From Eledone cirrhosa (Eukaryota): 64,000 nt of DNA. Position 1 is the first letter of the stretch; each line of letters starts with the position of its first letter. Below the pieces are notes generated by a model. That model was not told where the DNA came from, searched no databases, and was given only the letters and a program-made list of their open reading frames with translations. Of the stretch, positions 16,329-64,000 are shown piece after piece. The translations under genes were made by a program, and so were the position numbers. Location of the stretch: contig OZ024742.1 in the NCBI GenBank assembly GCA_964016885.1, forward strand, positions 296,112,001-296,176,000, in the 5' to 3' direction.

Positions 16329-16373
16329 GTAATCGATGATCGTTTCTCGCTTGTTAGCAGTTGTCAAGATTAC
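16329..16373 (-). ncRNA. type I hammerhead ribozyme, U3-A8 core variant
   Basis: Minus strand: gtaatc-TTGACAA-ctgc-taacaa-gcga-GAAA-cgatca-TC^gattac. Stem I 6 bp, extendable (caaaggga/tccctttg). Stem III is a near-palindrome acgatc(a/g)t. Lies in a TA-flanked ~280-bp element, 16188-16465. Confidence 0.7.
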
Positions 16374-17200
16374 ATATCCCTTTGCTTCTGCCGAGAGTTA
16401 TAGGAGCTGGATTCTTATAGAATTCCAGTAATGTTTAAGAGCTGCTTAAGCAGAACGGTTGCCAGTATATATATATATATATATATATATATATATATAT
16501 GAGAAAACAGGAAAAGTGATGATGCTGATGATGAACAATGATATATATATTTATATAAAGAATAAAGACCCCTGTTGGCCATGAATGACCATGGGTTTTG
16601 CACCTAGAAAGTTCCCTCCAAGACACAAGCCCAGGCAAGATGTTTTTGGTTCTTATGGAAGACCAGCAATCACACATGTATATCAGTCACTCCTCTCTAT
16701 ACCACTAATGTGGTCCAAGGGAACAGTAAAGGTCTATACAACTTGGTACCAGTGGCATTGTAACTGATTTTTGCAGCTAAATGAACTGGAACAATGTAAA
16801 TATAATGTCTCACCCAAGTACACGGCCTCATTTATTTAGGACTGGATGCTATGGTACCAACATAACTTTACATCGAAAGGGGTGGTGAAGATGGGGTGGG
16901 GGTAGTGGGACGGGGGTGTATTTTTGTTAAGAGGTGCCTACTGACTGTAGGTTTCGCTTTGTACTTAGGCAAGGCAGGTCTTCTGTATTACTGCGTAGCA
17001 CCAAAGATCTTGGTCCAGTGACATTGTCTTGGAGAGGTGTAAGTGTGAGGTCGGAATTTATCAAGTCGTCCCAGGTTTTTCTGGGTTTGCCTACTCTGTG
17101 GCTACCGTCTATTTTTATCGTCCTGCACTTATATATATATATATATATATATATATATGTAGTTAGATAGATGGACGTTAAACGATGATGATATATATAT

Positions 17201-17291
17201 ATATAGAAATGGCTTCTACAGGGCTAGAACTATTTCATTCGAAGGAAATCATCAGGAAACAGTTCTAGTCCTGTAGAAGCCATTTGTATAT
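17201..17291. repeat. 36-bp inverted repeat whose loop holds a partial hammerhead core
   Basis: Arms 17201-17236 and 17256-17291. Minus strand reads CTGATGA-tttc-cttc-gaat-GAAA; the other arm reads GAAAcagttctaGTC. Confidence 0.65.
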
Positions 17292-17463
17292 TAAAAATTT
17301 ATACTCTATGTATTGAGTACCTCACTTACTGTGGTTACCTCTGATTGAACTCGGGATACACATATATATATATATGTGTGTGGGTGTGTGTGTATATATA
17401 TATAGAGAGAGAGAGAGATATATAATTAAAGAAGAAATTAAAAGATGGTTAAAAAGTTCCATA

Positions 17464-17525
17464 TATTTTATTATGCGCATTTCGAAAACAACATCAGCCT
17501 GGGACAAAAATTGTGTTCTCGTCAG
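17464..17525 (-). ncRNA. hammerhead ribozyme copy with disrupted stem I
   Basis: CTGACGA-stem II-GAAA-tgcgca-TA^ataaaata, but the 5' stem I strand is replaced by ccctct. Confidence 0.55.
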
Positions 17526-17883
17526 AGAGGGAGGGAGTGAGGCCTAAAAACACTTGTCAACAAGAAAGTGTAAAGTATGACAGAAATATACGAGTAAGAA
17601 AAAGATAGGAAAATAGAAGAAAAGGAAAGGAGAAAAAGGAAAAAGAAATAGATGAGAGGAAAAAAGGAAAAAGAAAGAAGGAAGAGAGAGAAAGTCTCTC
17701 AAAAGTCTCCCTCTCTTTCTCTCTCTTCCTTCTTTCTTTTTCCTTTTTTCCTCTCTTCTATTTTTTTTCCTTTTTCTCCTTTCCTTTTCTTCTATTTTCC
17801 TATCTTTTTCTTACTCGTATATTTCTGTCATATTTTACACTTTCTTGTTGACAAGTGTTTTTAGGCCTCATATCATGTTACCT

Positions 17884-17953
17884 TATTTTATCTGATGAGA
17901 ACACAATTTTTGCCCCAGGATGATGTTGTTTTCGAAATGCGCATAATAAAATA
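17884..17953 (+). ncRNA. type I hammerhead ribozyme
   Basis: tattttat-CTGATGA-gaacacaat..gttgttttc-GAAA-tgcgca-TA^ataaaata. 8-bp stem I, palindromic stem III atgcgcat. Confidence 0.88.
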
Positions 17954-61015: not shown

Positions 61016-61050
61016 TCTTTTGTTAAGAACTAGTGTCCGAAAAGTTAAGA
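61016..61050 (+). ncRNA. degenerate hammerhead-like relic
   Basis: tctt-TTGTTAA-gaac-tagt-gtcc-GAAA-ag-TT-aaga. Topology fits, but there are several core and stem defects. Confidence 0.3.
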
Positions 61051-61133
61051 CTCACTTCCTGCTATTTCAAGCGTCAAACTAATATATTTCTTCCATGTGC
61101 TGTGCTGTTTGTTTTGTTATTTTTGTTTGCATA

Positions 61134-61235
61134 CAAGGTGTCCCCCAAAAATGTATACATACTTCAACAGCATTCTAATAATTATTGCCTGTACAGGTAA
61201 TTAAAGTGTGTATACATTTTTTGGGGGACACCCTG
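61134..61235. mobile_element. Tc1/mariner-type MITE
   Basis: ca(a/g)ggtgtcccccaaaaatgtatac TIRs with TA flanks. Confidence 0.78.
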
Positions 61236-62311
61236 TATATATCTATATATATTCTAAAGGGTTGTAAAGAAATTTGTCACACTCAATGTTGTTACTGTTT
61301 CCTATTGTAACTATGAGGTTGTGTATTTAATTTTTCTATCTAAGTTATTTAAAAAGAAATATATTGCTGCACTTACATATACCATCGCTATGATTTGAAT
61401 TGTGTCTTCTAATATGGTGACATCTCTTAAATAAAAACTCTAACTTTTCATGTTGTCGTAATAAGATTAAAAGGAAGTATACCTGTATCTGAGTATAAAA
61501 TTCCAATTTCATTTAAACCTGCTGTAGGCCAGAAAATGTAATCTGTATTGCTACAGGAATTCGGCTGGTGTAAATTATCCTTCTTTTCCATATTCACTGA
61601 ATACTCAGTTAATATTGTGTAAAGTAATGTGATATAGTGAGCAGAGTTTTACATGTAATTCCCACATGAAAAATAGGAACAAGATTGGAATAAATAAATA
61701 AATAAATAGTTCCATAGAAGATTGTTGCTACAGAAGTAGTTTGCTGGAGTCTTCCCCATTACCAAAGCTAAAAGCTTAATGTTATATATTCAATATGTAG
61801 CAAATATATTTTAATGTTTCTGACGACAGTGATTTATTTAAACCTATGTGTGCATGGATGTAACTCTTGACTACTTCACCTTCACTTCAGTGAAGTTTTA
61901 AAATAGAAGTGGTATATATTCAATGAGTGGCAAATATATTAATCTTACATTCAATATGTAGCAAATATATCTAAAACTATGTATGGATTTAATTTTTAAC
62001 TGCGTCACTCATGTTATAAAGTAGAGATTGAAACCTTTTAAAAGTATTATAAAACAGACAAAACTTTCAAGTTCAACTTAAGAAATAGTAACTATGTAAA
62101 CAGCACATTTTTACTTCTATGGTTCCTTTCCATTAGTCAGAAATGGTATAATTAATTTTACTTCACACTTTTACTTCTCTATAAGCAGACATGCTCATAA
62201 GCAAAGTTCCTCAAGTTATATTCTTGCTGCATATGTAGGAATATTTCTGTTAGATAATTACATGCAGGTATGGCTGTATAGTTAATACTTTTCATAACAA
62301 CATCTGGTTCT

Positions 62312-62511
62312 NNNNNNNNNNNNNNNNNNNNNNNNNNNNNNNNNNNNNNNNNNNNNNNNNNNNNNNNNNNNNNNNNNNNNNNNNNNNNNNNNNNNNNNNN
62401 NNNNNNNNNNNNNNNNNNNNNNNNNNNNNNNNNNNNNNNNNNNNNNNNNNNNNNNNNNNNNNNNNNNNNNNNNNNNNNNNNNNNNNNNNNNNNNNNNNNN
62501 NNNNNNNNNNN
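62312..62511. other. assembly gap (200 N)
   Basis: Run of N. Confidence 1.
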
Positions 62512-64000
62512 TACCAACGCTTGATTGGGTCTACTCCACCCCTCCCCTCTTTCTCCTACTGGCAGGTTTAGCCACCATCTCCCCTACTAATTTGCAACCA
62601 CAGAATTACTACTGATTTTTGACAATCACTTTGACCATATATGGAATTACCCCTTGAGAAGATCGGCTATTTAAATACCAGGATAAATGTTCATTTAGTC
62701 CAGAATTAGCCGTCGAAACGGCTTGAGCTCAGCTGTCGGGGTCTTACTGGTTCCTATTACCCACTCTACTACCTCAAGTATTGAGTACTTTGGTGCGTTA
62801 TGGTCCACCTGGTTCCTTACCACATTTCCTTCGTTATCTAGCTCCTACTCCCGTAGTAGAGCACTTTCCGACCCTACCACGCCGTATCCAGACTTTTCCG
62901 CTAAGCTCAATTCATTTCACCGCACCATGCGAAAACACAACATTGACTTCTCTACCAAGAACATCCCAATCCCACCGAAAAAACTTTACCTTCGGATGCT
63001 CACGCAAAAAATTGATCTATTTGCGAAAAGACTTAGATTGAGAACTTTTTTCTATGACAGATATTGCGACAACCAAGACCTCGGCACCAAGGAGAGATTC
63101 GGATTTATTACCTACAAATCTCCGCCCCTGAACCCCTTGCTCGCACCCTTCGAGAATGACCTCTTCCAACTGGTCAAGAACATTAAATTTAAACCCAGAC
63201 ACAACCGATTCCTACAAAAACTCGTAGCAACTTAACAGAGTATGATAACACAAATGACATCATGGTGCATTCGGATAAAACTGGGAACCTATACTTTGTC
63301 AACCCTGACAGATACCACACACTGATACACGAGCAGCCTAAACTCCACTATAAAAGGCCAACCACTCTGCATCGAGGACATAAATCGAGATGGACAACAA
63401 ATCACCTCCAGCCTCGGGTCGCCGACCGCACGGAACCTCTAGACCCACGGACACCATACTTCACACTGAAGGACCATAAACCCGATTTTGACCGTAAACC
63501 CTCCATCAGGCTTATTAACCCAACGAAGTCCGACATAGGGAGAATCAGCAAAATAATCCTAGACCGCGTGATACAAAAGTCAAGCAACACACCCGACTTA
63601 GCCTATGGATCAACACCCAGGAAGTAATCTCCTGGTTCAGCAATATGGAGGATAAACGAGAAACTAAATTCATACAGTTCGACATAGAGAGCTACTATGC
63701 TTCAATCACCTTACCGCTACTTACTGCCGCCTTGGACTTCGCCGAAACACTCGTGCCATCACCGACCAGGAAAGAAAAATCATCCTCCACGCCAGGAAGA
63801 CAGTCTTACTCTTTGACGACTCTAAATGGATAAAAAGAGCTCCCGACTCACCCTTCGACGTCAGCATGGGCGCCACGGATTCGCGGAGGTCACTGATCTT
63901 ATAGGATTATTCCTAATAGCCAAACTCACTGATATGTTTCCTGCATTCGGTGTGGATTGTACCGTGATGATGGGCTCCTTACCCTTAAAGGGTACAACCC
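62512..64000 (+). mobile_element. Penelope-like retroelement (Naiad-type): 5' repeat plus frameshifted RT ORF running off the window
   Basis: ATG at 62927. FSTKNIPIP..YLRML..RLRLRTFF..FGF..PP..FENDL..NIKF; SDKTGNLY; TLKDHKPDF..IRLINPTKSDIGRISK; FIQFDIESYYASI; FDVSMG; GLYRDDGL at ~63954-63977. Several frameshifts. Confidence 0.9.
62649..62742 (+). ncRNA. type I hammerhead ribozyme, U3-A8 core variant, upstream of the PLE ORF
   Basis: acccc-TTGAGAA-gatcggcta-[37 nt]-tagccgtc-GAAA-cggct-tgagctc-agctg-TC^ggggt. All three stems pair; predicted cleavage after 62737. Confidence 0.75.

Follow-up and report, generated by a model that had tools for sequence, protein, structure and literature searches.

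Positions 3 and 8 of the hammerhead ribozyme pair in its active fold (PMC3884650), and a natural covariation of the core, with U3-A8 in place of C3-G8, was reported in 2011 and stated to be active in vitro (Perreault et al., 2011, PMC3088659). The same variant has been described in the Cercyon Penelope-like elements of Schistosoma mansoni, with about 1,300 U3-A8 minimal hammerheads against about 2,000 found by the first descriptor, and cleavage as a dimer has been proposed for these minimal Penelope hammerheads (Cervera and de la Pena, 2014, PMC4209133). The last two papers were the only relevant matches of literature searches on the variant, and a search on retrozymes and octopus gave nothing on it among the matches listed. 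Here we describe three type I hammerhead motifs with the U3-A8 core in a 64,000-nucleotide stretch of the Eledone cirrhosa genome (contig OZ024742.1, positions 296,112,001 to 296,176,000; hereafter the window). They are called sites 1, 2 and 3 in order of position. The window is AT-rich, with many microsatellites and repeats, and the heptamers and flanking parts of the three sites were found where an earlier reading of it (the original prediction) had placed them. The remainder of the core (U4 G5 A6 N7, A9, G12 A13 A14, A15.1-U16.1 and H17) is present at all three. U3-A8 at these sites is an inherited family trait and not decay, fixed in three mobile families, and we consider it probable that each of these uses its hammerhead to cut precursor RNA to unit-length templates for retrotransposition.

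The tertiary 3-8 pair has undergone the compensatory change that Perreault et al. (2011) describe, but where that paper has a few examples, whole families of thousands of copies here carry it as a fixed trait. The likeness to Cercyon goes further, in that the terminal repeat region of the Penelope-like elements holds a type I motif with U3-A8 for C3-G8, the copies are mostly single truncated ones and opposite-strand pairs, the 15.2-16.2 region is palindromic, and a C3-G8 descriptor misses them. The differences are that the matches described there number about 1,300, against over 26,000 here; that there are three vehicles here; and that site 3, in which stems II and III are long, folds as a monomer, unlike the minimal metazoan forms. 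What is new here is the counting across the whole genome, the number of vehicles (three), and the occurrence of U3-A8 in a Hydra-type element. Because U3-A8 and its Penelope link were already published, the advance is one of scale and of examples.

The core of each family was determined using patterns with any base allowed at positions 3 and 8, run over the 3.0-Gb genome; their reversed controls gave 0 matches. The site 3 pattern found 2,151 copies, and all of the first 100 listed are U3-A8. For site 2 there were 12,193 copies, the first 100 listed being 99 U3-A8 and 1 G3-A8, and for site 1 there were 208, where a hand count of the first 100 listed gave 91 U3-A8, 3 U3-G8, 2 U3-C8, 1 U3-U8, 2 A3-A8 and 1 C3-A8. 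C3-G8 occurs in none of these 300 copies. Because the top BLAST matches are biased towards the core of the query, the core tallies rest on these patterns and on an unbiased sample of 120 evenly spaced 10-kb stretches (1.2 Mb), in which U3-A8 is carried by 13 of the 14 site 2 family motifs and 6 of the 7 site 3 family motifs.

In addition, one minimal pattern was run genome-wide for each core, each with a reversed-sequence control. This pattern tests no pairing, and matches neither site 1 nor site 3. The counts were 61,927 for C3-G8 (control 451), 25,439 for U3-A8 (control 1,477), 1,698 for U3-G8 (control 588) and 1,636 for C3-A8 (control 851), giving over 87,000 motifs in the genome. The double change is thus far more frequent than either single change, in line with the co-occurrence that had been proposed, and net of controls the two mismatched classes are 20-70 times rarer than C-G or U-A. 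These numbers speak directly to the caveat that came with the proposal, namely that each site is a former C3-G8 hammerhead which, once inserted, acquired two transitions of a common kind. The most frequent changes are indeed C to T and G to A, single U3-G8 and C3-A8 copies occur within C3-G8 families, and site 1 has decayed at positions other than 3 and 8. However, independent decay of C3-G8 is expected to give about 14 doubles, against about 24,000 observed net, U3-A8 is found in all 40 identical copies (the best 40 of 413 candidates) of an element with an intact open reading frame (ORF), and the 300 family copies listed include no C3-G8. The chance that decay accounts for the three sites is therefore negligible. 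A route through CpG decay at positions 7 and 8 was also ruled out, since position 7 in the families is A, G or mostly U.

The further claim, that there is a large population of variant ribozymes invisible to CUGANGA-based searches, holds as to its existence, the population being a minority. U3-A8 makes up 27% of the net minimal-pattern counts; since the site 2 family supplies most of these U3-A8 matches, they stand for copies and not for events. In the unbiased sample, a descriptor that tests pairing but leaves positions 3 and 8 free picked up 80 motifs, comprising 69 C3-G8, 7 U3-A8 (one of them probably a chance match), 4 U3-G8 and 0 C3-A8, while the reversed control of the sample gave 7 matches, none with C-G or U-A at 3/8. 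This descriptor missed the site 3 family, and the descriptor initially used on the window missed site 1. The share of U3-A8 in the hammerhead population is about a tenth to a quarter, with C3-G8 staying the majority; a search for C3-G8 only would miss roughly that proportion of the motifs here, among them those of an apparently active Penelope-like element. The presence of three U3-A8 motifs in 64 kb, which had been thought worthy of remark, is not so in a genome with this many motifs, and the window also has 5 C3-G8 motifs. Nor can copy numbers be read as independent events, since they reflect the amplification of few founders. By the strict descriptor, the density of hammerheads in the genome sample is about 67 motifs per Mb, and many of the sample motifs sit in young arrays with tandem units of 310, 430-470 or about 525 bp.

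As had been suggested, the families of the three sites are unrelated, and they travel in distinct vehicles: a Hydra-type and a Neptune-type Penelope-like element and a retrozyme. Full type I topology, which had been assigned to all three sites, is found at site 3; at site 2 the motif is minimal and stem III is of dimer type, and site 1 has a 15.2/16.2 mismatch and a C.A closure of stem II.

At site 3, stem I (62649-62653 with 62738-62742) is followed by a G10.1-C11.1 pair, G12 is at 62715, and the cleavage triplet is GUC with C17 at 62737. The hammerhead three-way junction, with stems I, II and III and stem I open, is the minimum-energy fold of the monomer, with pair probabilities of 0.97 for the first stem I pair, 0.62 for 10.1-11.1 and 0.75 for 15.2-16.2. 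The folding energy is not below that of shuffled sequences (z -0.7). The element that carries the motif is best seen at C1:437198000-437214400, where five tandem motifs recur every 3,531 bp in units that are >99.9% identical, an inverted copy lying on the 5' side. It has an intact ORF of 717 amino acids with the motifs RWR (35-39), DKT (117), YRDD (348), CxCx5C (572), YIGLT (606), CxxC (670) and CxH (698), and (TA)n terminates the short copies of the family. A BLAST search with site 3 gave 40 scored matches (the best 40 of the 413 candidates), all 100% identical to the query, and the tandem array is apparently an active Hydra-type element. The copy in the window is 98.6% identical to the intact unit, and is frameshifted, with 18 gap openings against it; the single-base gaps may be consensus errors. 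A 200-base assembly gap (window 62312-62511) immediately precedes the element.

We class the site 3 element as putatively Hydra-type by its motifs, as distinct from a tree with reference elements. Like the Hydra clade as described by Craig et al. (2021, PMC8557442), it has a single ORF with RWK-like and DKT motifs, a CxCx5C linker and the CxxC and CxH motifs, a C-terminal GIY-YIG-like endonuclease without CCHH, (TA)n insertion, a hammerhead, and tandem and inverted copies. It differs in having RWR for RWK, a unit of 3.5 kb where under 3 kb is typical, and U3-A8 where all 26 Hydra rows of file S2 of that paper, obtained using a general descriptor, are C3-G8. Pfam gave no family for the Hydra-type frames, the 717-amino-acid protein included. 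The hammerhead of another Hydra-type element, to which three of the C3-G8 motifs in the window belong (Table 1), is C3-G8. A second Hydra-type element is present in the window as a frameshifted copy (7310-9044, +), which shares 34-46% identity with the protein of site 3, and there is a separate endonuclease-end fragment at 39779-40168 (+); no hammerhead was found in the 2.5 kb downstream of either. More generally, among 25 Penelope ORF ends examined, 7 had a motif downstream, these being 3 of the site 3 family (one of them C3-A8), 3 C3-G8 (one probably belonging to another repeat) and 1 doubtful U3-A8.

Site 2 has a perfect 4-bp stem II, a palindromic minimal stem III, a G10.1-C11.1 pair, and the triplet GUA with H17 at 37797. 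Stem I has only 3 contiguous pairs, and 4 in the commoner subfamily (55 of the 96 copies listed). The calculated stem III dimer duplex has an energy of -10.3 kcal/mol, and the motif is predicted to need a dimer for cleavage. The upstream DNA in 17 chosen stretches was non-coding only, and the parent ORF came from longer copies, in which the motif lies about 1,030 nt past the stop codon of an ORF with reverse transcriptase (RT) and GIY-YIG domains. Pfam gives E 6e-7 for GIY-YIG and E 3e-5 for RVT_1, the latter below the curated cut-off with the N-terminus absent from the query. The parent protein is 21% identical to that of site 3, and because it has a Cx4CxxC linker together with RT and GIY-YIG we class it, by motif only, as Neptune-type. 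A near-perfect 133-nt inverted repeat (window 37889-38021) adjoins the site 2 element, and is probably an inverted-copy junction of another repeat.

Site 1 lies in a non-coding monomer, and has a long stem I (z -5.2) reaching 16309-16395. It has decayed at positions other than 3 and 8. The copy in the window has a C15.2/A16.2 mismatch (the family majority, 20 of 32 copies, being GUC), and its stem II is closed by C.A. The stem III dimer duplex has an energy of -15.5 kcal/mol in the family form and -4.8 kcal/mol in the window copy, cleavage of which is likely impaired. The window copy is solo, and 87-92% identical to its nearest copies; in family copies the monomer end joins the monomer start. 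Over its whole length the monomer shares 65-70% identity with tandem arrays of C3-G8 type that are young and have units of 310-312 bp, and it is related to a six-copy 316-bp array that is U3-A8. Its length of about 310 nt, the lack of coding sequence, the single type I hammerhead and the homologous arrays of 310-316 bp fit a non-LTR (non-long-terminal-repeat) retrozyme. The metazoan non-LTR retrozymes described previously (Cervera and de la Pena, 2020, PMC7229834; Li et al., 2026, bioRxiv 10.64898/2026.07.22.740005) are likewise non-coding AT-rich monomers of about 300 nt with one type I hammerhead, found as tandem arrays and solo copies, with a proposed dependence on Penelope; the differences here are that the lineage has both C3-G8 and U3-A8, and that the window copy is solo and damaged.

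Table 1. Hammerhead motifs and their vehicles in the window. Element classes are by motifs and structure, and cut positions are predicted.
Feature	Position	Strand	Details
Copy (about 280 nt) of putative retrozyme monomer of about 310 nt, non-coding	16187..16465	-	(TA)n both sides
Site 1 hammerhead motif, type I	16329..16373	-	U3 16367, A8 16362; predicted cut after 16335
C3-G8 hammerhead motif, 3' region of another Hydra-type element	17884..17953	+	core 17892
Further motif copy of the C3-G8 Hydra-type element		-	core 18862
Further motif copy of the C3-G8 Hydra-type element		+	core 18945
Another C3-G8 motif		-	core 20213
C3-G8 hammerhead motif of abundant tandem repeat family of about 430-470 nt	29831..29873	+	core 29837
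5'-truncated 3' end of Neptune-type Penelope-like element, 217 nt	37657..37873	-	between TA runs
Site 2 hammerhead motif, minimal type I	37792..37831	-	U3 37826, A8 37821; predicted cut after 37797
Tandem-unit start, young Hydra-type Penelope-like element	62512..64000	+	ATG 62927; extends past window to second identical hammerhead
Site 3 hammerhead motif, full type I	62649..62742	+	U3 62654, A8 62659; predicted cut after 62737

Sites 1 and 3 both have homologous C3-G8 relatives, and therefore the 3-8 pair has switched repeatedly. A tree of retrozymes was built from 43 dereplicated monomers (out of 82 candidates), masking positions 3 and 8. It contains two supported groups, in both of which one branch is C3-G8 and another U3-A8, the bootstrap being not fully settled; it follows that there were at least two switches. 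Each of the three vehicles most likely acquired U3-A8 on its own, because the other Hydra-type element here is C3-G8, as are the published Hydra motifs. A small family with both cores on the same stem II (U3-A8 at C1:70389132; C3-G8 at C1:26567337 and C1:96781441) is a likely further switch.

Repeated switching invites the idea that U3-A8 is positively favoured, a slower cut sparing longer precursors or intact messenger. It would agree with a switch that recurs across three or more vehicles and two or more times within one retrozyme lineage. A pattern with a 4-nt loop III also gave 3,683 matches (control 744) with several more U3-A8 families, and by hand count about 56 of its first 100 rows listed are U3-A8; moreover the most uniform Penelope-like family examined and the family of 12,000 copies are both U3-A8. 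However, families with C3-G8 outnumber those with U3-A8 and are just as young, and an AT-rich genome would yield C-G to U-A swaps without selection, and we regard positive selection as improbable. The more specific idea, that the pair flips from C-G to U-A repeatedly in two Penelope clades and one retrozyme lineage since U-A tunes the cleavage rate for retrotransposition, is likewise rather unlikely in our estimate; were it true, the expanding Hydra-type element with its monomer-folding U3-A8 motif would be a direct test system for the role of Penelope hammerheads. A link between C.A closure of stem II and U3-A8 was tried and ruled out, such mismatches being common in C3-G8 families: many of these here have stem II closed by U.U, C.A or A.G in place of a pair, and mismatches at 10.1-11.1 occur also in published Hydra motifs.

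In the explanation that we prefer, that of founder copies with a working U3-A8 hammerhead, each motif would have its precursor RNA cut after H17. Site 3 would cleave as a monomer, once per 3,531-bp tandem unit, releasing a unit-length RNA whose ORF lies 190 nt past the cut, and site 2 and the family form of site 1 would cleave as dimers through their palindromic stem III. The retrozyme would borrow the Penelope RT and endonuclease for (TA)n insertion. Compensatory substitution in founder copies, probably via a U.G wobble step, would have produced U3-A8 several times, and the abundance of this core would be due to the amplification of those copies.

Several points weigh against this explanation. 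In vitro, cleavage by minimal Penelope hammerheads was poor even for dimers (PMC4209133), a result that leaves other functions possible, and Craig et al. (2021) describe the role of the hammerhead in Penelope-like elements as unclear and perhaps parasitic. Site 2, with its 3-4 stem I pairs, does not fold as a hammerhead monomer, and in 28 of the 32 site 1 family copies stem II is closed by C.A and not by a pair. Uniform U3-A8 in young families is evidence of a single founder and not of selection acting copy by copy. We infer maintained cleavage from sequence and predicted fold, and the clade names are taken from motifs, not from a tree with reference elements. Finally, a tree of 24 chosen retrozyme rows without the ribozyme region needs two changes, with a weak deciding branch (59/69), and by that tree U3-A8 may have a single origin in this lineage. 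The first of these points, together with the very short stem I of site 2, would suit a dead or dispensable passenger, in which U3-A8 is catalytically negligible in vivo and the motif hitchhikes with successful founders that move without cleavage. A dispensable core should drift to unpaired, though, whereas whole families are C-G or U-A with the mismatched classes rare; every U3-A8 family seen retains stem II, the NUH site and the other core positions; and U3-A8 is borne by the young 316-bp tandem retrozyme. We therefore think a passenger quite unlikely, and a cleavage function at the three sites, as modelled, likely. The families provide natural covariation of the 3-8 tertiary pair at family level and on a large scale, and the site 3 element, with its intact ORF, identical tandem units and monomer-folding motif, is a convenient model for asking whether Penelope-like elements need self-cleavage.

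An Rfam scan of the window gave no hammerhead family among the best 150 of 222 matches listed, the top matches being microsatellite and hairpin artefacts. Other repeats in the window include a GC-rich LINE (long interspersed nuclear element) at 24726-28187 (+), with endonuclease and RT domains and long frames interrupted by single stops, and RTE-like LINE pieces at 35096-36577 (-) and 23591-23929 (+), whose RT has an inserted PHD-like finger. A SINE-like (short interspersed nuclear element) 3' end with an (ATG)n tail is present in many copies (6993-7037, 20923-20967, 41897-41941 and others). There is a 48-bp tandem repeat family at 33050-33268 and 54887-55118, and there are long hairpins at 17630-17780 and 34626-34784.

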